A stretch of DNA of 64,000 bases from a virus (lineage: Duplodnaviria > Caudoviricetes). Made by a program: the position numbers and the translations under genes. Shown one piece after another: positions 119 through 17,418 of this stretch; position 1 is the stretch's first letter; every line of letters begins with the position of its first letter. The notes under the pieces were generated by a model. The model worked only from the letters and a program-made list of their open reading frames with translations. It was not told the DNA's origin and searched no databases. The stretch is from the IMG/VR virus record IMGVR_UViG_3300026442_000101. One strand, written 5' to 3'.

Positions 119-245
119 AGGTCTCCACCCGTGTTTTCGAGACACGGACCTCACTCATGTACCTGATCCACGCCGAACCCCGAAGGGATGGGCATGTTCG
201 GAATCGAACCGAAAGAGTGCGCTCTACCATCTGAGCTAGGCGGAG
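119..245 (-). ncRNA. Double-headed tRNA-like RNA A: outer tRNA body with a nested permuted tRNA remnant; no anticodon; A-CCU 3' end
   Basis: Minus strand reads CTCCGCC TA GCTC-AGATGGTA-GAGC G CACTC [T TTCGG-TTCGATT-CCGAA CATGCC CATCCC-TTCG-GGGTTC GGCGTG GATCAGGTACAT] GAGTG AGGTC CGTGT-CTCGAAA-ACACG GGTGGAG A CCT. Acceptor, D, anticodon and T stems all pair. Confidence 0.8.
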
Positions 246-252
246 ATAAAAC

Positions 253-978
253 TTACGCGCAGCGGTAGTTCGGGTTCTCGAGAACAACCTCGAGGTCGAA
301 GAACAGCTCGGTCTTGATGCTGGACGGCACGGTGATGGAAAGCAAGGCGCGCTCAGGATCTACCTTCAGGTAGATGTCTTCAGCACCAGGGATGCTGAGG
401 GTGTAGTTCTGAGTACGCTGACCTTCGATCTGCTTGATAGCAGAGAGGTCATGGGACAGCTTGATACCATCGGCCGTGCGGACGTTGTTGAAGCGGATAG
501 CGCCGACGCTGTCGGTCAGATCCAACACGCTGGGATCGCCGAAGCCGAACACGTTGAACTTACCATCGACCAACGGCAGGTTCTTGGCTTCGAGGCGACG
601 CTCGGTAGCGCGGCCAATGCGACGACGCAGGACAGTGGAGTACTTGTCCATGAACGCGCCTTGCTGCATCATCATGTCTACATCGAGATCGGAAAGACCT
701 TCAGGCTTGGCGCCCTGACCCACGTTGTAGAGGAACGAGCACAGACCTTTGTGACGCGCGGTCAGTTGCGCTTGCTCGATAATCATGCGCTGGACATGCG
801 CCGGGCGGCTGTCGATGTGACCGAGCGGCAAGTGATCTTTCAGGAACTGCTCTTCCGATTGCCAGGTTACGTTGCCGGCTTCGTCTTTGACGTTGTAGCC
901 AGGCTTACCATCTTCGCCGGATTGAGACGACCAGGCGAGGACAGTAACGTTCTTGTTCACCAGATAGTTCTGAGTCAT
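253..978 (-). CDS. Hypothetical protein; N-terminal half resembles the crAss001_48-like/DUF2829-associated phage domain
   Basis: 241-aa ORF with phage-like codon usage; GYNV...VTWQSEEQF and VQRMIIEQAQL...L.SFL motifs recalled from that family (not searched). Confidence 0.6.
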   Translation of the reverse strand: MTQNYLVNKNVTVLAWSSQSGEDGKPGYNVKDEAGNVTWQSEEQFLKDHLPLGHIDSRPAHVQRMIIEQAQLTARHKGLCSFLYNVGQGAKPEGLSDLDVDMMMQQGAFMDKYSTVLRRRIGRATERRLEAKNLPLVDGKFNVFGFGDPSVLDLTDSVGAIRFNNVRTADGIKLSHDLSAIKQIEGQRTQNYTLSIPGAEDIYLKVDPERALLSITVPSSIKTELFFDLEVVLENPNYRCA

Positions 979-1007: not shown

Positions 1008-1095
1008 AGGGCGTTCCTCGTGGATTTGAACCACGGACCTTCGGCGTGTCTTTTAGCTAAGGGGCCGACGCTCTAACCAGCTGAGCTAAGGAACG
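1008..1095 (-). ncRNA. tRNA-like RNA B with an 18-nt expanded anticodon loop and C-CCU end
   Basis: CGTTCCT TA GCTC-AGCTGGTTA-GAGC G TCGGC-[CCCTTAGCTAAAAGACAC]-GCCGA AGGTC CGTGG-TTCAAAT-CCACG AGGAACG C CCT. Confidence 0.85.
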
Positions 1096-1100
1096 AGAAT

Positions 1101-1213
1101 AGGGGCTTCCTCGAAGAATCGAACTTCGGACTTCCGCCAGGTATGGTGAGCCTGCCCCATTTAAGGGGCCAGGAGGCTCGAAGACGGCACTCTACCAACT
1201 GAGTTAAGGAAGC
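1101..1213 (-). ncRNA. tRNA-like RNA C with a 44-nt structured insert replacing the anticodon loop and C-CCU end
   Basis: GCTTCCT TA ACTC-AGTTGGTA-GAGT G CCGTC-[TTC GAGCCT CCTG GCCCC TTAAAT GGGGC AGGCTC ACCATACCT]-GGCGG AAGTC CGAAG-TTCGATT-CTTCG AGGAAGC C CCT. Confidence 0.85.
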
Positions 1214-1220
1214 ATGTAGC

Positions 1221-1496
1221 TTAAAGCAAACCTTCCGAGATCATGAACTGTTCGAGGTCATCAAAGAAACCATCGTACAGGATTTCGGTACCGGCAAAAC
1301 CTTTCCAGCGCCACCACTTAGGTTCTTTACCCATAGCGGTGATGCTTTCTTCGGTTTGCTTTCTGAAGAAATTACCGACCTTATCGAACGCAACGAGGTC
1401 GGTGGTGTAGAGATCCCCGTGGACGTGCAGCAGCCTGATTATCTTGGCTTCCAGTTCTGGACTAACCTCGAGTTCTTTCAGTTGCTTATTGCGCAT
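1221..1496 (-). CDS. Hypothetical protein (~91 aa)
   Basis: The ORF-track start (1553) lies inside tRNA-like RNA D; the first ATG outside it is at 1496 (MRNKQLKELE...). Confidence 0.6.
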   Translation of the reverse strand: MRNKQLKELEVSPELEAKIIRLLHVHGDLYTTDLVAFDKVGNFFRKQTEESITAMGKEPKWWRWKGFAGTEILYDGFFDDLEQFMISEGLL

Positions 1497-1513
1497 CACA
1501 AGTTTCTCTGAAT

Positions 1514-1664
1514 AGGGAGCACTGACTGGAATTGAACCAGTGACCTTCGTCAAGTTGGCCTTACGCTCTAACCAACTGAGCTAATCACCCATACGGGCGA
1601 TGCCGGACTCGAACCGGCGACCTTAAGGGAGGGACGACGCTCTACCAAACTGAGCTACAGTGCT
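1514..1664 (-). ncRNA. Double-headed tRNA-like RNA D: outer tRNA split at the anticodon around a complete circularly permuted (Val-like) tRNA body; C-CCU end
   Basis: AGCACTG TA GCTC-AGTTTGGTA-GAGC G TCGTC CCTC CCTTA AGGTC GCCGG-TTCGAGT-CCGGC ATCGCCC GTAT GGGTGAT TA GCTC-AGTTGGTTA-GAGC G TAAGG CCAACTT GACGA AGGTC ACTGG-TTCAATT-CCAGT CAGTGCT C CCT. Pairings cross as AGCACTG/CAGTGCT, TCGTC/GACGA, TAAGG/CCTTA and GGGTGAT/ATCGCCC. Confidence 0.9.
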
Positions 1665-1671
1665 ATTGAAT

Positions 1672-1821
1672 AGGTAACTCTAGCAGGGAATCGAACCCGC
1701 TGCCTTCCTCATGTTTGCGTCTACCAATTCCGCCATTGGCCGATAGTGCCGGCCAAGCAGGACTCGAACCTGCAATCCTTTTCAGGAAGGTGAGGACGCT
1801 CTACCAATGAGCTACAGAGTT
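1672..1821 (-). ncRNA. Double-headed tRNA-like RNA E: outer tRNA with a nested permuted Leu-type (class II) tRNA body; A-CCU end
   Basis: AACTCTG TA GCTC-ATTGGTA-GAGC G TCCTCA CCT TCCT-GAAA-AGGA TT GCAGG-TTCGAGT-CCTGC TTGGCCG GCACTAT CGGCCAA TG GCGGAATTGGTAGACGC AAACA TGAGGA AGGCA GCGGG-TTCGATT-CCCTGC TAGAGTT A CCT. TGGCGGAATTGGTAGACGC plus a variable-arm hairpin is tRNA-Leu-like. Confidence 0.88.
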
Positions 1822-1831
1822 AGAATAAGCG

Positions 1832-2115
1832 CCTGGGGAGGACATTCCCCAGGTCTTGCCACTAATTACCCTAGTGGCCAAGGTGCCTTCATATCGCTTC
1901 AGGCAGGTTTGCGCGGTACTAGCTAGTGTCTGACCATGCTAGAACAGTGCTCGGCATGTGCGGCGCTGGCGCTTCCCTGATAACTCAAAGCCAACAGACT
2001 GGCTCCTCGTCGTCGTAGGGTCTAATGTAACTACAAAGCCTTACGTGCAGCTATAGCGCCTCGGGTAGGGAGGGCACGGGGCTAGGATCTTAGGCTTGGC
2101 ATAGGAGTACCGAGC
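1832..2115 (-). ncRNA. Putative structured non-coding RNA (~285 nt) inside the tRNA cluster
   Basis: No ORF in the track. Long-range helix 2106-2115/1911-1920 (9 of 10 bp), hairpins at 1832-1853 and 1856-1881, and further internal stems. Strand is inferred from the flanking tRNAs. Confidence 0.5.
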
Positions 2116-3061: not shown

Positions 3062-3280
3062 TCAGATGAGTTCGAGTTTCAACCCATGCTCTTCCAGAGT
3101 GGCGATCAGATCCATCACGTCACGGCGCTGTATCCGACCGAGGCGTTCGTAAGACCCGAGCGCTTCTTCCAGTAGGTCAATCACGCGTTCGGAGTCAGTC
3201 TCTTCAGCGTTCTTGGCCAACATCCACTCAGGGAGTGGTTCATCGGGATTGAGCTCGATGTTTACGTTCATGCCTTCCAT
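3062..3280 (-). CDS. Hypothetical protein
   Basis: 72-aa ORF abutting the upstream stop codon. Confidence 0.65.
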   Translation of the reverse strand: MEGMNVNIELNPDEPLPEWMLAKNAEETDSERVIDLLEEALGSYERLGRIQRRDVMDLIATLEEHGLKLELI

Positions 3281-4203
3281 TAGGTCGGGTTCTCTTCATT
3301 GAGGAGGTATTGGCGAATGCGCGCGACTGGGATGTTGAAGCCGAGGTTATTGATGATCGAGATCTCGCGATCACGAGCCAGCGGACTACGCGCCGCCAGG
3401 TGGCGAATCAGGAACTGCTGTTCATCGACGCGCAGTTCCTTGTAGCCGGTAATGTGCCAGCAGACCTCTTGGGATACTTCGTAGTAGGTCTTCCCACCCT
3501 CTCCAGGAATTCTGAGTCCGGCAAACCTGGAACGGAGATGATGCAAGTTGGACGGCAGGGTCATTGGGAGATCGGCAGATCTATTGAGGACCAGCGAGAT
3601 GAATTCCTCAAGCTCATCCATCCCGCATCTCGAAAACCGAGATTTGATGAACTCACGTTCGCACTCCTTGAGGAGATTGAAGTAAGGGATTTCCGCCAAC
3701 TCGGAGTCGGTAGGGGCAGCTGCGTTTTTCGAGTAACCGCTTGGAGGTCTTTGAAGCCGGCCAGAGTCTGCGATGTGGTACTCCTCGAACACCGATGGTC
3801 CGTTGAGCTTTTCGAAGTAAGCGTAGCAGCGCAGTTGCAGATACCCTGCGATAGATGCCCTGACATTCTTCGGGGCGCAGAATAGTGCGCCGCTGGTGTA
3901 GGCCTTGGCTTCTTCAGCCCCCACTTCTTCCAGCAGATTCCAGAATCCAGAACCGGGCAGTCCGGCGTTGGTGCCCGACTTACGTACGACGAGCGAGGTC
4001 AGGTGCGGCCAGTTCTTCTCGATGCAGAAGTGGAAGATGTGGGTGAGCAGACCGCCGATGGTCTTGGCCATCTGGTTGCCCCTGTTAGGGATGCCCACGA
4101 GACCTGCGAGCTCTTCGTAGGTAGTGGTTCTTCTCTCCATTGCCAGAACGATCAGTCTGGCCGAGATTGTCGAAGTTGCGCTGTGAATGTTATTGCTAGC
4201 CAT
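3280..4203 (-). CDS. Hypothetical protein with putative N-terminal winged-helix domain
   Basis: TTYEELAGLVG...WPHLTSLVVRK...LPGSGFW pattern recalled from winged-helix domains found in nuclease-associated proteins; not searched. Confidence 0.6.
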   Translation of the reverse strand: MASNNIHSATSTISARLIVLAMERRTTTYEELAGLVGIPNRGNQMAKTIGGLLTHIFHFCIEKNWPHLTSLVVRKSGTNAGLPGSGFWNLLEEVGAEEAKAYTSGALFCAPKNVRASIAGYLQLRCYAYFEKLNGPSVFEEYHIADSGRLQRPPSGYSKNAAAPTDSELAEIPYFNLLKECEREFIKSRFSRCGMDELEEFISLVLNRSADLPMTLPSNLHHLRSRFAGLRIPGEGGKTYYEVSQEVCWHITGYKELRVDEQQFLIRHLAARSPLARDREISIINNLGFNIPVARIRQYLLNEENPT

Positions 4204-6861: not shown

Positions 6862-8316
6862 TTACTCGAACACGAACCGGAAGGTGGCGTTCTCGAGGCT
6901 GATGGTGACGCCCTCACAAGGCTCGAAGACCTCGTTGTGCAGCTTAGGACCTACTTGGCTTTCCAAGGCCTCGTAGTCGATGTCGGTGATCTTCTGCACC
7001 AGCGCCGAGTCAGGGTAGTGACCAGGGTTGGCGTACAGGGTGATCGTCACGCCAGGCCAGAGCGTGTTGATTGCCGCCTTGATGCCGGAATGACGATTGG
7101 TGCTGAACGCCCACGGGCCGATGTCGACACTGATCTCGCGCGAAATCTCATCGACGTCAACGTTGACCACGTTTTCGTGCTTGGTGATGTCGTTGATGGT
7201 AGTCAGGCTGAACGTAGTGATGGCGTCGCTCAGTTCGACTTCCTTACCAGCGGCAGTCATCACCATGGTAGGCTTGCGCTTGAAGTCCATCTTCCGCAAC
7301 ACGGAGCTCAACGAGTCGACCGAGTGGTCCAAGACACTGGCGCCGAGTATACCAAACGGCGTCGAGAGCTCAAATCCGGTGAGTTCGCGGCGCGCAGAAC
7401 CCAGAGCGCCGACACGGTCCGCAGTCTTGTAGGCGAGCCAGTCGGTATAGTCCAGCGCTTTGAGCAGCTCGATGGCCAGCAGGTTGATCTGCTTGTTCAG
7501 CAAGGCATGGTTGACGACAACGCCATGGCGAGAGGTGAACGAGAAGTCCTGCTCAACACGGAAGTAGAACTTACGAGTGAGTGGCTTGGTACCGTGGGTG
7601 AGGCTGACGTAGTGCGTAGGACGCAGATCAGCTGGAGAGCCGATAGCTGTCCATGCATGCAGGTCGATGAGGGTAATGGTACCCCAATCATGGATCTGCA
7701 TTTCGCCTTCTTCAACCACGTATTTATCGCGCTCTTTGATCATGGCTTCTGCAGTCATGTTGTCAGTCTCAGGATTGATTTCGCGCAGCTTGGTGACTTC
7801 GCCACGCATTACGAGGCTGTAGAACTCAATGAGCGCTTCTGCCTTTTCGCCGACCAGGTCTTCGTACAACTTGTCGTCGAACACTTCACAGAAGTGACAA
7901 TTGTCGGTTTCGAAGACTTTGATCGGGACGCCGTAGCGGTCCTTCTCGAGCTTACGCGTCGACGGCATTTCGAAGTCTGGGAACAGTTGACGGTAATTAT
8001 CGCGCATCTCGTTACATCTGGCCTTGATGTGCGCGCGTGGATCGGCAACATCAGGAGTAACGCTGAGCTTGGTGTACTTACCGTCCACAATGGCTTTGAA
8101 CACCTTTGGCCACCAGGCAGACCGCTGGCTGTCGATGAGACGCTCAGCGACTTCTTGAATGGCGCGTACCTCGAAGCTACCGTTCAAGTATTGGTAAACG
8201 ACGAAGCGCTCGCCCGCTGGCAGTTCTTCGGGTTTGGCAACGGCGACATCTACGGTGTCGAGGGTCGGGTATTTAGCCAGGAATTCTTCGCGGGCAGTTT
8301 GTTTCTTTGCAGTCAT
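6862..8316 (-). CDS. Hypothetical protein
   Basis: 484-aa ORF; no motif recognised. Confidence 0.8.
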   Translation of the reverse strand: MTAKKQTAREEFLAKYPTLDTVDVAVAKPEELPAGERFVVYQYLNGSFEVRAIQEVAERLIDSQRSAWWPKVFKAIVDGKYTKLSVTPDVADPRAHIKARCNEMRDNYRQLFPDFEMPSTRKLEKDRYGVPIKVFETDNCHFCEVFDDKLYEDLVGEKAEALIEFYSLVMRGEVTKLREINPETDNMTAEAMIKERDKYVVEEGEMQIHDWGTITLIDLHAWTAIGSPADLRPTHYVSLTHGTKPLTRKFYFRVEQDFSFTSRHGVVVNHALLNKQINLLAIELLKALDYTDWLAYKTADRVGALGSARRELTGFELSTPFGILGASVLDHSVDSLSSVLRKMDFKRKPTMVMTAAGKEVELSDAITTFSLTTINDITKHENVVNVDVDEISREISVDIGPWAFSTNRHSGIKAAINTLWPGVTITLYANPGHYPDSALVQKITDIDYEALESQVGPKLHNEVFEPCEGVTISLENATFRFVFE

Positions 8317-9089
8317 TATACAGCTTCCTTGTCCATAGTTGGGATAATGCGGTGAGTTGGAGTGCGGTTGTTTTCGACAGCACAGTGCGCGTCGCCGAGC
8401 TCGAATTCATTCGTCGGCGGCTTGCAGCCGGGGTACATCAAGGCGTAACGCTCCTCGAACGTCAACTCCTCGGTATTGGTTCTGTCCTCAGGACAGAACA
8501 CATAGCCGGGGTAGCGATTGTCGAGAAGATGTTTGGGGATGTAACGAACCATGCCTGCATCGCGCAAGATCTCCACGACCTTGTGCCCGGCTTTGCGGTT
8601 CTTGTGGAACATCTCAACCAGAGGGTCTTTCTTACCGCGATGCTCCCAGAACATCTTCATGCGGAAGAACAACTCACGGTCCATACCGCCAGCGCTGCCG
8701 ATGCAGCCAGGGTGGTCAGTGGCCATGTAGTAAGGTTCGACATCAGGAGCCGCGTCCTCTTCCTCGTAGATGAACTCGAGGATGTACTCGATGAACTGAG
8801 CCACCGCCGGAGAGCGGATACGGCCTTCGCCACAATGGACGATGATCTCCTTACGAGACTCTGACGCTACCAACGCGAAGTCGATGATCGAGAGGATGTG
8901 CTCGTCGGTGATTTGACCTTCCGGCTTGACCTTCGACATGTTCATCGGATCGAACTTCAGCTGCAAGAGCTGAATGTGGTTAGCGTGGTAAACGGCTGGC
9001 GAGTCGTAACTACCGCGCAGGCCGATCAGTCGCGTCGGCTTAGTCAGCGCGACAGCAGCTTCCTTACTGATGAAATGAATCTTTGGCAT
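8316..9089 (-). CDS. Protein-tyrosine/dual-specificity phosphatase-like protein
   Basis: P-loop IIVHCGEGRIRSPAVA (HCxxGxxRS) and upstream L.LKFD. Confidence 0.8.
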   Translation of the reverse strand: MPKIHFISKEAAVALTKPTRLIGLRGSYDSPAVYHANHIQLLQLKFDPMNMSKVKPEGQITDEHILSIIDFALVASESRKEIIVHCGEGRIRSPAVAQFIEYILEFIYEEEDAAPDVEPYYMATDHPGCIGSAGGMDRELFFRMKMFWEHRGKKDPLVEMFHKNRKAGHKVVEILRDAGMVRYIPKHLLDNRYPGYVFCPEDRTNTEELTFEERYALMYPGCKPPTNEFELGDAHCAVENNRTPTHRIIPTMDKEAV

Positions 9090-11749: not shown

Positions 11750-12016
11750 TTAAGGACTTCCTACGAGATACCTGAACTGTTTGCAGCAGCGCAGGATCTC
11801 TTTGTGTTGGGGATGCTTCGGCTCCAGCTGTTCGAAGTACTGAGCTACTTTTACCTGGTAGATGCCCAGATCGATCGCCCGCTTACCGTCATCTGTCGCG
11901 ATGTGGGCGGTGCGGAAAATCCTGGTGGCGATCAGGGCTTTGAAACCATCGGCGGTGAAGTCGAAGGTAGCCCCATCTTCTTCATCTCGACCATCGTAGA
12001 ACAGGATCGTCAGCAT
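11750..12016 (-). CDS. Hypothetical protein
   Basis: 88-aa ORF with GGAGA SD. Confidence 0.7.
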   Translation of the reverse strand: MLTILFYDGRDEEDGATFDFTADGFKALIATRIFRTAHIATDDGKRAIDLGIYQVKVAQYFEQLEPKHPQHKEILRCCKQFRYLVGSP

Positions 12017-12317: not shown

Positions 12318-14381
12318 TTACGCGACTTTCGAATTGCCGTGCAGTTCGAACCACCGGTCAGTAGTTTCGGTGATGTGCTGATCGACCTTCGCACAGATGT
12401 CGGTGTGGTTAGGATCAACCACGAAACCGCCATCCATGAAGATCGGTTTCAGCAGACCAGACTTGACGTGGATCTCGGCGATCTTCATATCTTGCTCTTG
12501 GTTGAGCACGATACCTTCATCGCTGTCGATCAGCGCCAGCAGGCCTTTGGCCGACTTCTTCAGACCGTCACCGGTGGCTGGGTCTTTGTACAGCTCGACC
12601 ATCTCACCATTGACCATGGTCGCGGTAGCCTTAACGGCAATGCCGAAGGTATCGCGAGTCAGGTAGTTGTAGGTGTAGGAGCCGACGCCGAACACGACGT
12701 TGCACGATGCGAAACCTTTGATCGCCAGACGACGGCAGATTTCTTCAGCGCGGTGTACGGTGATGGAATCGCCGTAGATCAGGCCGATGCGTTCGTGCAG
12801 AACTTTGTAGCCGCGTTCGGTTTCGGTACCGCCGAAGGTTTCCCACAGCAGCTCGATGGCACCCTTCTCTTGCGCCGACAGCTCGACCTGTTCGATCTTG
12901 TAGCCGTTGCGGTAAGTGCCCTTACCCATGACCATGACTTCGACACCGCGCAGCTCGAGCAGGTCATGCAGCTCACGATACGCTTTGAAGCGGACCGGGT
13001 CGGTGCAATCGGCGCTGATCGGGAACGGGTAGTCGAACAGGGCGGCGGAGCCCATCACGTCGGTCATCAGTTCGTCGTAGTAGCTGTGATCAACCGCAGG
13101 CAGATCGGCCTTGACCTGACTGATGGTGCGGGAGATCGCTTTACCGGCGATACTGGTGGCTTTGTGAATCTTGCCTTCCGGATCTTTGAAGTAGACGAAC
13201 TCCGGCTTGTAGTTCACCATCTGAGCTTCGGCAGCAAGCTGGTCCAGGATTTCCACGCCGCAGATGATTTCTACAGGATCGCCCGAGTCAGGACGGATGA
13301 CCAGCTTGGCCATGCCGTTCTCGTCAGGCAGACGAGCCAGGATCTCTTCCTTCAGCGAAGGCAGGACCGAGGTCAGTACGCCAAAGAAGTCGAAGCTGTC
13401 GCACACCAGGCCCAGCATGCCGGTCTTGAACTTGACGGTCAACATTTCCTTGATGAAGCCACGCTCTGCTTCCAGGCGCATGCCTTTCAGTTCAGAGAGC
13501 AGCTCTTCTTCGGTAGCGCCTTCGGCTCGACGAGCCTTGACCATCTGACGCAGCCGACTCAGGATGTTCGCGGTTGCCACCGAGTGCTCAGTCGCAGGAA
13601 TGGTACCTGCGATCATCACCTTCTCGGCATCGCCGTTGTACATCTGCTCGATGTAGTCGATGGCCGGCATGGTATCACTGCCGGTGAACACGCGCAGGTG
13701 AGCCGCGCCGCAACGAGCGCCATCTTCCATACCCGACATGCCACGGTACGAGAAGTCGTGAGCCTGGAACTTGACGAAGTCGGTAGGCACGCCGGTGATC
13801 TTGGCCCACTTGGTCAGGACGCGACGGTACTCGAACGCAATGGTGCCGACGGTAACCTGTTTCCAGGTCATGTTCGACATGATGGTTTCGAGGAACTCGG
13901 CCAGCCAGAAGAACTCGGAGCCTTCATCGATGACATTACCGTTGCTGTCGTAGATGACGTACATAGGCACGCCAATCGGCAGACGGGTACCTTCTTCCAC
14001 GCCCAGGATACGCAGCGGCAGGTGACCGATATCGTGCAGGTTGGCAAGGGACTTGGCCGATACCTTGTCTTTGCCGATGTAGGTGTCGCAGCGGCGCTTG
14101 AACTTGTAGAGCACGTCGGACTTCGGCTTGCTGAAGAAGCTCTCTTCCCACATGCTGACGATTTCATGCAGCGCGGCTACGTGACCGGTGACCAGGATCT
14201 TACGGTCCCACATCGAACTACAACTCGGCGATCGAGCGAAGATCTTGTCGCTACGCGCGGTGCTGTTGGCGTAGAGGAACGACGAACCGTCGGGATACAT
14301 CGGACCATGGCCTTGTTTGTAGCCATCGGTACCGGTAGGGCCGAACATCTTGAAAGCTTTGAACAGTTTCTTGAGAGACAT
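12318..14381 (-). CDS. nadV: Nicotinamide phosphoribosyltransferase-like protein (NAMPT; Namat-like in NARP1)
   Basis: TDGYKQGH, HDFSYRG, GSDT, PATEHSV, DSFDFF, VIRPDSGDP, GLIYGDSIT, FGVGSY, TRDTFG.A.K and KKSAKG motifs; two insertions give 687 aa. Confidence 0.93.
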   Translation of the reverse strand: MSLKKLFKAFKMFGPTGTDGYKQGHGPMYPDGSSFLYANSTARSDKIFARSPSCSSMWDRKILVTGHVAALHEIVSMWEESFFSKPKSDVLYKFKRRCDTYIGKDKVSAKSLANLHDIGHLPLRILGVEEGTRLPIGVPMYVIYDSNGNVIDEGSEFFWLAEFLETIMSNMTWKQVTVGTIAFEYRRVLTKWAKITGVPTDFVKFQAHDFSYRGMSGMEDGARCGAAHLRVFTGSDTMPAIDYIEQMYNGDAEKVMIAGTIPATEHSVATANILSRLRQMVKARRAEGATEEELLSELKGMRLEAERGFIKEMLTVKFKTGMLGLVCDSFDFFGVLTSVLPSLKEEILARLPDENGMAKLVIRPDSGDPVEIICGVEILDQLAAEAQMVNYKPEFVYFKDPEGKIHKATSIAGKAISRTISQVKADLPAVDHSYYDELMTDVMGSAALFDYPFPISADCTDPVRFKAYRELHDLLELRGVEVMVMGKGTYRNGYKIEQVELSAQEKGAIELLWETFGGTETERGYKVLHERIGLIYGDSITVHRAEEICRRLAIKGFASCNVVFGVGSYTYNYLTRDTFGIAVKATATMVNGEMVELYKDPATGDGLKKSAKGLLALIDSDEGIVLNQEQDMKIAEIHVKSGLLKPIFMDGGFVVDPNHTDICAKVDQHITETTDRWFELHGNSKVA

Positions 14382-15597: not shown

Positions 15598-17418
15598 TTA
15601 TACAGCGACAGGGATGTCCATGAACGGACCGTGGGTATAGCCGGTGATCTCAACATCGCTGAACTTGATGTCGTCGATGTTGTCGAACTTACCGTTGATG
15701 ACCATGCGGGCATCGAAGTCACCGTCGGAGTCGCGCCAGATCAGCTCTTTGATCGCATCGACCTGGTTGAGGTAGATGTGAGCATTGACGCCGACCGTTA
15801 CGAGTTCCATCGGAGCGTGGTTGGTGACGTGAGCTACCATGTGCAGCAGGTAGGCGTACTGAGCTACGTTGAACACGGCTCCCAGCGGCAGGTCGCTGGA
15901 ACGCAACAGGACGAAGCAGTTCAGGCCACGACGCGGAATGTCTTGCTTGTCGAGATATTCATCGACGCTACCAGCACCGCCTTGGGGAAGCTCGACGTCA
16001 TCGCGATGTTTGTACTTCAGCAGCTTCACGCGTTGCGCCATGGTGAGCACTTGCGAGGTGAACTGGAAGTACAGGTGACATGGAGGAAGCGCTGCCTGCC
16101 AGGTACGGCCGGGGTTGTGAGCAGTCACGATGATCCGACGGTCATCCGGGTTGGTGCGTAGCGTATCGATACAGTTCTGCAACTGGTCGATGCTGCGGTG
16201 CATGACCGAGTGACCGAGAGTGGTGAACTCTGGCTGAATCTCGCCCCACTTCAAGTAGCCCTGCTTGATGTAGTCGGAGAAGCTAGGGACGGCATTGTCA
16301 GCATTGGACACTACTTGCCAATCCTGCCATTTGCGCCACTGTGCGCCGTAACCACCCGCACCGATGTCAGCTTCAAGCAGAGGCCACGCATTGATGCCGA
16401 AGAAGTCCAGCAGTTTCTCTACCCGTTCCACTTGGGCGTTGTTGAGGATATCGTCCTCGAACTTGCCGTTGCGGAACACGACCACCGGGACGGTCTTGGT
16501 TTCAGCAGGATCGTCCTCACCCATCATGATAGCGCCAATGATTCGGCTCCATTCATGTTCGCGGTTCTTCGACAGGCGCGCCAACCGACGCTTGAGCGAC
16601 AGGCGCTTCGGCACGTTACGGCGGCGTGGGATGCCGCTGTAGTCGAGGATGTGGTTGAAACCGTCGACCTGGTCGCGATCGAACCCGAAGTTACTGGCGA
16701 TGTTCGGATGCTTGAAGTCCAGGTACTCGTACGGCTCACGACCACCGCCCGGATGGAACCCATGGAGGAACGGCACCACCATGTAGACCTTCCCCGTCTG
16801 TATAGCCAGCTCGATACGTTCTTGGGTGGTGAGTGTGTCGCCTTCCACAGCGTCCCAGAACTCGTACACGCGAGCTACGCCAAACTGGTCAAGGAACTTG
16901 TGGATCTCATGGATGTCAGCATCGGCCAGATTGGAGTAAGTCACCTGCTTCGAGCTTCGCCCGGGCAGCAGCGAAAGTCTTTCGGGACCACCAATGCCGC
17001 TGATCTCGATGCGACGTTCGATGAACTTCTGGATCGCCTCGGTATTTTCGAGGGTGGTGCACGACAGGTCGATACGCTGCTGGCAAGTGCGGCGCCTGAT
17101 GCGCGGCTCATCGTACTTGTCGGTGCCCTTGATGAACCAGCTGTCCCAGATACCTACCTTGTTGTCGCGCAGGTACTTGATGTTGGTGTTACCGGAGACG
17201 AACCAATGCATCTCGTGCTGGAACTTCTCAGGTAGGATACCGCGCAGGCTGATGATCGGCATCTGACCGAACTGGCAGTCAAAGCGCATGACCGCTGCGT
17301 GAGTGGCGTAGGTACCCACCCCGGTGCGGTCCTCTTGGAACCAGCCGTGATCGAGGCAATGGCGATACTTGTCGACGAACTGAGCATCAACAAGGTTGTG
17401 GATTACTGGATCGGACAT
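15598..17418 (-). CDS. thyA: Thymidylate synthase with large insertions
   Basis: DRTGVGT, EMHWFVSG.TN, IWDSW, YGAQWR, NPDDRRIIV, LPPCH..FQF, RSSD..LG..FNVAQY and NAHIYLNQ motifs. Confidence 0.96.
   Translation of the reverse strand: MSDPVIHNLVDAQFVDKYRHCLDHGWFQEDRTGVGTYATHAAVMRFDCQFGQMPIISLRGILPEKFQHEMHWFVSGNTNIKYLRDNKVGIWDSWFIKGTDKYDEPRIRRRTCQQRIDLSCTTLENTEAIQKFIERRIEISGIGGPERLSLLPGRSSKQVTYSNLADADIHEIHKFLDQFGVARVYEFWDAVEGDTLTTQERIELAIQTGKVYMVVPFLHGFHPGGGREPYEYLDFKHPNIASNFGFDRDQVDGFNHILDYSGIPRRRNVPKRLSLKRRLARLSKNREHEWSRIIGAIMMGEDDPAETKTVPVVVFRNGKFEDDILNNAQVERVEKLLDFFGINAWPLLEADIGAGGYGAQWRKWQDWQVVSNADNAVPSFSDYIKQGYLKWGEIQPEFTTLGHSVMHRSIDQLQNCIDTLRTNPDDRRIIVTAHNPGRTWQAALPPCHLYFQFTSQVLTMAQRVKLLKYKHRDDVELPQGGAGSVDEYLDKQDIPRRGLNCFVLLRSSDLPLGAVFNVAQYAYLLHMVAHVTNHAPMELVTVGVNAHIYLNQVDAIKELIWRDSDGDFDARMVINGKFDNIDDIKFSDVEITGYTHGPFMDIPVAV

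Follow-up and report, generated by a model that had tools for sequence, protein, structure and literature searches.

A predicted phage RNA in which a circularly permuted tRNA body is nested within the anticodon arm of a second tRNA body

Architecture and folding of the nested unit

The 64,000-nt stretch of DNA analyzed here (the window) belongs to IMG/VR record IMGVR_UViG_3300026442_000101 and derives from a distant phiKZ-like jumbo phage of soil: it encodes phiKZ internal head proteins and a virion protein that is 31-35% identical to its counterparts in Pseudomonas, Xanthomonas, Burkholderia and Ralstonia jumbo phages (about 33% for the phages RTH11 and FLC9). A minus-strand cluster at approximately 1009-2530 of the window contains genes for tRNA-Ile, tRNA-Tyr, tRNA-Asn and tRNA-Gln and an odd tRNA with an oversized loop (ARAGORN, Rfam). 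The subject of this work, which we call unit B, sits in this cluster at 1515-1664 on the minus strand and is a predicted noncoding RNA of about 150 nt. Read 5' to 3', it consists of an outer 5' half, an inner 3' half, the tetranucleotide GUAU, an inner 5' half and an outer 3' half, and its parts are as follows:

1658-1664, minus strand: 5' strand of the outer acceptor stem, AGCACUG, paired with 1518-1524; four of the seven pairs covary in relatives
1639-1655, minus strand: outer D arm, GCUC/AGUUUGGUA/GAGC, following U8 and A9; the stem is invariant and lies within a partial Rfam tRNA match at 1602-1657
1633-1637, minus strand: 5' strand of the outer anticodon stem, UCGUC, paired with 1547-1551 across 81 nt
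1629-1632, minus strand: 5' linker of the junction, CCUC, taken from the linker table of the covariance-model alignment; CCAC, ACUC or C in relatives
1595-1628, minus strand: inner 3' half, with CCUUA, variable loop AGGUC, T arm GCCGG/UUCGAGU/CCGGC and acceptor 3' strand AUCGCCC
1591-1594, minus strand: GUAU loop sealing the inner acceptor stem; 8-9 nt in relatives
1559-1590, minus strand: inner 5' half, with acceptor strand GGGUGAU, UA, D arm, G26 and anticodon-stem 5' strand UAAGG
1552-1558, minus strand: 3' linker of the junction, CCAACUU, equivalent to positions 32-38 of the outer body, with A34-A35-C36
1515-1551, minus strand: outer 3' half, with GACGA, variable loop AGGUC (including G45), T arm ACUGG/UUCAAUU/CCAGU, acceptor 3' strand CAGUGCU, discriminator C and CC
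1508-1514, minus strand: trailer UAUUCAG, a putative processing site; the N-CC-UAUUC end is common to the other tRNA-like elements of the clade

The sequence-only reading of this locus had claimed that the halves are crossed, i.e., that a complete permuted tRNA is enclosed in the anticodon arm of another one, and the architecture was found just as claimed: all four stems that it had named pair exactly, the two anticodon stems meet at a 4x7 internal loop with 11 linker nucleotides in all, and the inner acceptor stem is closed by 4 nt. The outer body, in which G26 can be read between the D arm and the 5' strand of the anticodon stem, owns the free 5' and 3' acceptor end. Its anticodon loop is replaced by CCUC, 70 nt and CCAACUU, with the inner body standing where the outer loop nucleotides 32-33 would be. 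The inner body is circularly permuted and runs from a T arm through an acceptor hairpin with its closing loop to a D arm.

The same reading had called for the nested fold to be compared with two tandem tRNAs, both in folding energy and in relatives, and both comparisons support the nested fold. Its energy is -49.8 kcal/mol versus -4.6 kcal/mol for two tandem cloverleaves; the latter value is this poor because only 24 of the 42 tandem pairs can form. The halves of unit B folded separately give -36.1 kcal/mol, and the unconstrained minimum free energy (MFE) structures produced by RNAfold (-53.4/-53.8 kcal/mol) retain both crossed acceptor stems and both T arms.

Relatives of the phage were reached via a neighbouring protein and provided seven distinct homologues of unit B, with the flanking protein being 51-76% identical. 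In a MAFFT alignment of the seven, built without reference to structure, 100% of the 294 cells of the nested structure are paired and 12 pairs are compensatory; the outer acceptor stem, for example, changes from AGCACUG/CAGUGCU to AGUCCAU/AUGGACU. Slid controls on this alignment are paired in 25-38% of cells, and the tandem-tRNA reading, with 35% of cells paired and no compensatory change, is at chance level. None of 500 shuffles matched the number of paired cells, the covariation score or the number of pairs changed on both sides; for further pair types, 6 of the 500 reached the observed count. A wider set of 15 nested elements, which includes one from the cultured phage RTH11, has 97.9% of cells paired and 28 of the 42 pairs covarying, in an alignment that is model-fitted and hence leans towards the nested structure. 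The changes are spread over the stems: two of the five pairs of the outer anticodon stem covary within the clade, and all five once RTH11 and the neighbouring nested unit are added; the inner acceptor stem has three covarying pairs of seven within the clade and six in the wider set; and three of the five outer T-stem pairs covary.

Both bodies carry the nucleotides of a tRNA elbow, namely U8, A14, G15-C48, G18G19, a 5-nt AGGUC variable loop and a UUCRA T loop. In silico, ARAGORN calls a tRNA when the inner body is re-linearised, and again when the inner body is deleted from the outer one. The same program makes no call on either linear half of unit B or on the intact sequence 1515-1664, and the Rfam tRNA model (RF00005) gives only partial matches of 25-27 bits over model positions 8-63, with a gathering score of 29 bits. 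Unit B is thus a two-elbow RNA composed of two complete tRNA bodies joined via their anticodon stems, and this part of the earlier structural interpretation stands.

Unit B has no canonical 7-nt anticodon loop: U33 is missing, position 37 is U and not a purine, and positions 37 and 38 vary in relatives. Every splicing register was tried by eye and none yields N-U33-NAC-R37-N. Since the linkers total only 11 nt, U33 is absent and positions 37/38 are not conserved, normal codon decoding by unit B is unlikely, in agreement with the sequence-only reading.

Related RNAs and the genomic surroundings

Unit B is one of two nested units in its operon and one of at least five tRNA-like RNAs there that do not have a normal anticodon loop. 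The other members recognized in the window are:

1673-1821, minus strand: second nested unit (unit A), the upstream neighbour of unit B, with outer anticodon stem UCCUC/GAGGA and a 3' linker ending in AAC-AU
1102-1213, minus strand: element with a 44-nt-insert hairpin
1009-1095, minus strand: element with an 18-nt loop containing an AGCU-centred palindrome
119-245, minus strand: reduced nested element with a T arm and closed acceptor

Inside the outer stem of unit A are a hairpin resembling a variable arm, which the inner module has in some phages, a T arm, a closed acceptor of 7 bp and a D arm of the Leu type; one anticodon stem is nearly shared by the two bodies. The nesting is present in the MFE structure of unit A and is recovered by RNAalifold from six homologues, with 12 compensatory pairs; covariance model R1, which was built from unit B, gives unit A 83 bits. 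An additional element with a 63-nt insert occurs in relatives. All tRNA-like elements of the clade end in N-CC-UAUU, whereas its decoding tRNAs encode CCA; in RTH11 and FLC9, CCA is encoded on some of the tRNA-like elements, and the RTH11 homologue of unit B ends in G-CCA.

Homologues of unit B occupy the same position in the relatives L001, L003, L007, L008 and L009. A BLASTN search against cultured phages additionally revealed unannotated homologues: a match over 91% of unit B in Xanthomonas phage RTH11 and a match over 87% of unit A in Burkholderia phage FLC9. The RTH11 element scores 100.7 bits with model R1, and ordinary tRNAs reach at most about 55 bits. Its inner anticodon stem (UCUUU/AAAGA) and inner T stem, both of which are invariant in the close clade, have changed compensatorily, and its junction is a 1x6 loop. 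In the FLC9 homologue of unit A, a UUCG tetraloop closes the inner acceptor.

Model R1 found no nested element in the whole genomes of pPa_SNUABM_DT01, LucasX, Xoo-sp14, FLC4-3B and PhiPA3; a 49-bit match in these five genomes was rejected as an ordinary tandem tRNA-Asn/tRNA-Asp pair, and all that FLC4-3B contains is a tRNA-like RNA with an insert. Exact and degenerate DNA patterns retrieved from IMG/VR only three contigs already known via the neighbouring protein, a scan of a single metagenome returned one known contig and chance matches, and a related-loci search with the ORF at 3280-4203 found none.

Three unrelated IMG/VR contigs outside the studied clade also show the permuted order of T arm, acceptor hairpin (7 bp, perfectly closed) and Leu-type D arm; about 0.1 such closures would be expected by chance among approximately 120 pattern matches:

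L076, about 7920-7980: permuted T arm, closed acceptor hairpin and D arm
L061, about 11900-11960: the same arrangement
L119, about 8320-8375: the same arrangement, with an upstream D arm that suggests another, larger nested element

The gene next to these RNAs (253-978, minus strand) encodes a 241-aa protein with a Sequestin domain (PF21825) and has tRNA-like elements on both sides, an arrangement that is kept in all relatives found. Sequestin is a family of sponges for 3'-cyclic ADP-ribose (3'cADPR) that block Thoeris defence (bioRxiv 10.1101/2025.07.12.664507). Genes for NAMPT-like and ribose-phosphate pyrophosphokinase-like proteins are nearby; the distance to the NAMPT and thymidylate synthase genes is 10-15 kb, and RTH11 shows the same neighbourhood. 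The NAMPT-like ORF (12318-14381, 687 aa) and the thymidylate synthase ORF (15598-17418, 606 aa), both on the minus strand, are far longer than the profiles of their families, with the ThyA match being limited to residues 349-606 of the latter, and it is possible that they contain insertions or fusions.

Two intervals between the RNA genes can also be described. In this phage only, unit B is separated from the next tRNA-like element by a small ORF (1221-1495, minus strand; about 91 aa from its ATG) that matches nothing in Pfam or PHROG; relatives have a gap of about 20 nt between these two RNAs. Between tRNA-Gln and unit A, a stretch of approximately 265 nt (1823-2089, minus strand) is free of ORFs and near-invariant in L001, L007 and L009. 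From four close sequences with little covariation, RNAalifold predicts for it a multibranch fold of 81 pairs with a strong terminal hairpin plus GCUUAUUC, and no Rfam family matches it. In RTH11, an annotated 3'-5' exoribonuclease gene (78505-79002; 18506-19003 in L144) lies about 2.5 kb downstream of the cluster of tRNAs and tRNA-like RNAs, and its product could take part in 3'-end maturation of these RNAs.

The stretch was found among assembled contigs of at least 30 sequencing runs, 27 of them labelled as soil metatranscriptomes. In the four runs inspected, the depth is uniformly high over the whole phage and the contigs, which reach 234 kb in those soil runs, are colinear through both nested units; the joints listed in the runs contain foreign letters from tRNAs of other organisms or have very low depth. 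The very high uniform depth suggests that, in one campaign, the phage was enriched or blooming or its DNA was carried over, and the depth data speak neither for nor against transcription or processing of unit B.

A valine-type triplet and the possible roles of the nested RNA

Numbered backwards from the 3' strand of the outer anticodon stem, positions 35-36 are A-C in all 15 nested homologues despite a 3' linker length of 4-9 nt. Over a broader collection that spans six architectural types and includes RTH11, FLC9 and Ralstonia phage FLC4-3B, a script parse finds A35-C36 in 37 of 39 elements, and of the two exceptions, the first is unit A, which was mis-parsed and reads AAC by eye. The elements at 1009-1095, 1102-1213 and 119-245 all keep NAC at positions 34-36. 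Position 34, on the other hand, is occupied by any of A, G, U and C, with differences even among close orthologues, and positions 37 and 38 drift too. This constancy of A35-C36 beside freely varying neighbours fits recognition of A35 and C36 and does not fit codon reading.

In Escherichia coli, the identity of tRNA-Val is determined by A35, C36, A73, G20 and G45 (PMC9976931). The valine-type tRNA-like structures (TLS) of viruses, TLS-Val, keep A35 and C36, have either A or C as discriminator 73 and, in a few cases, are valylated in spite of large inserted stem-loops (PMC9976931). Unit B has G45 in its AGGUC variable loop. Because A35 and C36, kept beside the outer stem, are valine identity elements together with G45, we propose with moderate confidence that unit B is a non-decoding two-elbow tRNA mimic of the valine type, analogous to the TLS-Val of plant viruses. 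Like the TLS-Val of, e.g., Turnip yellow mosaic virus (TYMV), unit B would be a viral mimic that does not decode, retains A35 and C36, has no conserved discriminator and tolerates a large insertion (PMC9976931). The two differ in that TLS-Val forms the 3' terminus of an RNA genome and combines a pseudoknotted acceptor with an ordinary anticodon loop of 7 nt. Unit B, by contrast, belongs to a DNA phage and is predicted to exist as a separate small RNA; it has a true acceptor stem, another tRNA body stands in for the 5' half of its loop, and its valylation is putative.

Several observations weigh against the valine-type proposal. The second of the two exceptions to A35-C36, the reduced nested element of RTH11, reads AAA instead of NAC. 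The discriminator is C in unit B and A or G in its paralogues and RTH11, as opposed to A73 of bacterial tRNA-Val; G20 is replaced by U20; and neither U33 nor a purine at position 37 is present. The encoded end in the clade is CC-U and not CCA, which could equally be a device against charging. A35-C36 could have been retained for a tertiary contact or for another protein, and the 81-nt insert might sterically block the anticodon-binding domain of valyl-tRNA synthetase (ValRS). Finally, the RNA of about 150 nt, its ends and its charging are all predicted from sequence. The clusters examined encode no canonical tRNA-Val, which is weak evidence as tRNAs for many other amino acids are missing too.

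Instead of interacting with ValRS, unit B may serve as a general decoy or sponge made of tRNA bodies, whose elbows and acceptor helices would titrate or jam a host protein; we consider this unlikely, though worth serious attention. The proposed targets are a defence effector that cleaves tRNAs or modifies their CCA ends, RNase P, RNase Z and the CCA-adding enzyme, and the NAC triplet would then be kept for another partner or for the structure itself. Two full tRNA bodies that lack a usable anticodon loop are what such a decoy would have, the encoded CC-U end argues against charging, and the operon belongs to an accessory region, with the Sequestin gene adjacent and the NAMPT-like and ribose-phosphate pyrophosphokinase-like genes near. 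However, the neighbourhood alone is weak evidence, the target protein is hypothetical, and the invariance of A35-C36 over six architectures, while N34 and the linkers drift, is left unexplained. To our knowledge, no valine-specific anticodon nuclease exists, which also counts against a decoy. It is rather improbable, in our estimation, that unit B functions as a two-piece RNA. In that case RNase P would cut 5' of the inner G1 within the closing loop and, following 3' trimming and CCA addition, a base-paired heterodimer of two strands of about 75 nt with two free acceptor ends would be formed. The inner 7-bp acceptor stacked on the 5-bp T arm constitutes the main RNase P determinant, the loop starts with A-CC in four of the seven unit B homologues, and a precedent is provided by the YrlA RNA of Mycobacterium smegmatis, which has a closed acceptor of 7 bp and, in vivo, is cut by RNase P and supplied with CCA (PMC4201824). 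Yet the closing loop is just 4 nt (GUAU) in unit B and conserved neither in length (4-9 nt) nor in sequence, the UUCG tetraloop of the FLC9 homologue of unit A leaves no free leader, and the YrlA of Salmonella Typhimurium is not cleaved (PMC4201824).

The likeness to YrlA (RF02553) goes further, as the inner module of unit B follows the same permuted order, from the 3' strand of the anticodon stem through the variable loop, T arm, closed acceptor hairpin and D arm to the 5' strand of the anticodon stem (PMC4201824). This YrlA-type domain, with its T arm, closed acceptor-like stem and D arm, is present in unit B and its closure covaries; in YrlA, such modules are handled by tRNA enzymes, i.e., TruB and DusA and, in M. 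smegmatis, RNase P and the CCA enzyme (PMC4201824). Unit B could accordingly be imagined to be a Y RNA in the YrlA sense, in which the inner module would be the tRNA-like domain of an RNA that binds Ro60 (Rsr) and tethers it to an exoribonuclease, and YrlA-type RNAs do occur in some phages (PMC4201824). We nevertheless regard this as very improbable. The Rfam YrlA match at 1561-1626, although it has the same order of T arm, closed acceptor and D arm, amounts to 37.7 bits, about half of the gathering score of 69, and extends over only positions 23-85 of the 114 in the model. The place of the Ro60-binding stem and its motif is taken by a complete second tRNA body with free acceptor ends; the GNCGAAN0-1G motif is not conserved, since five of eight unit B homologues lack it and the other three have it at position 114-119, where the outer anticodon stem and variable loop lie, and not near the 5' end. 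No Ro60 (TROVE) gene, which for a YrlA RNA would be expected within a few kb on the same strand, was detected in the complete RTH11, FLC9 and FLC4-3B genomes or in the window, where a Pfam scan of the 126 ORFs also gave no RNA ligase, RtcB or CCA-adding enzyme. An even smaller probability attaches to the remaining part of the earlier interpretation, according to which unit B is a precursor for cleavage and ligation into a linear and a circular product; in the form weighed here, cuts at the junction would release a linear outer tRNA and a circular intermediate that would yield a functional inner tRNA. The inner halves indeed follow the 3'-then-5' order of the circularly permuted tRNA genes of algae and archaea (Cyanidioschyzon merolae, Thermofilum), with a short intervening sequence between the acceptor strands, and FLC9 encodes RtcB and an RNA ligase; those genes, however, give ordinary tRNAs via a circular intermediate and bulge-helix-bulge processing (PMC3978253). 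Unit B has its permuted part embedded in another tRNA, shows no bulge-helix-bulge at its 4x7 junction (1x6 in RTH11) and has no recoverable anticodon loop, 11 linker nucleotides being too few for two 7-nt loops and U33 being restored by no cut. Together with the UUCG cap in FLC9 and the lack of RtcB and of a PF09414-type (Rnl2-type) RNA ligase in RTH11, the phage with the clearest homologue, this speaks against the precursor, and we know of no tRNA splicing endonuclease in bacteria. The least probable of the explanations, which we would not defend, is that unit B is a functionless by-product of recombination between tandem tRNA genes, a set of half-swapped pseudogenes. Tandem tRNA genes do share D-arm and T-arm repeats able to recombine, and tRNA finders miss unit B, but all 42 pairs are kept across phages with 51-76% flanking-protein identity and in RTH11/FLC9, many of the changes are compensatory, and two paralogous nested units are maintained side by side. 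Because of this covariation, accidental recombination is in practice refuted.

The valine-type mimic that we favour would be produced and used in the following way. Host RNase P and 3'-end enzymes would mature the RNA like a tRNA: RNase P would cut it out of the operon, with U or A at position -1, and an endonuclease cut in the UAUU trailer would be followed by trimming and by completion of the CC end to CCA. At the 3' side of the junction, N34-A35-C36-N37-N38 would be stacked on the outer anticodon stem, ValRS would bind via A35/C36 and the elbow, and charging might follow once CCA is completed. By replacing the 5' side of the loop, the inner body would bar the RNA from the ribosome and protect it from nucleases that attack anticodon loops, and it may serve as a second nuclease-resistant elbow or as cargo. 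The benefit to the phage may lie in stabilisation of the RNA by ValRS or EF-Tu, in titration of host factors, in counter-defence or in a takeover of translation. In engineered tRNA scaffolds, a foreign structured RNA is put in the place of the anticodon loop and thereby acquires tRNA-like processing and stability; unit B differs from them in being natural and conserved, in that its cargo is itself a tRNA body, and in the retention of a valine-type triplet.

Significance for jumbo phages and their hosts

Known tRNA mimics, such as tmRNA, TLS, YrlA and mascRNA, are single bodies. Nowhere in the literature that we searched is a tRNA within a tRNA described, for phages or otherwise, and the ncRNAs of phiKZ detected by Grad-seq are unrelated to unit B. 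Rfam has no family for the nested architecture; at permissive thresholds, unit B matches no intron, ribozyme or tmRNA family and only partially the tRNA and YrlA models. In unit B, two complete tRNA bodies are connected end to end in one natural RNA, whose fold is conserved with heavy covariation in a nucleus-forming lineage of jumbo phages. Together with its sister elements, unit B suggests that phage tRNA clusters hide a second class of RNAs, non-decoding ones, which the usual tRNA finders overlook or label wrongly.

The invariant A35-C36 leads to a cheap and concrete question, i.e., whether ValRS binds or charges these RNAs, and the presence of homologues in two cultured phages, RTH11 and FLC9, opens this question to bench work. 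If charging or a defined protein partner were confirmed, it would constitute a new mode of interaction between phage and host at the level of the translation apparatus. Tentatively, we can go a step further and speculate that jumbo phages make a whole family of tRNA scaffolds with valine identity, which would be completed with CCA and valylated by host ValRS, and that members with two bodies would use the second elbow to bring in another tRNA-binding factor, making them bivalent adaptors or decoys in host takeover or counter-defence. Such a family of valylated scaffolds, if it exists, would be to DNA phages what the aminoacylatable TLS are to plant RNA viruses.

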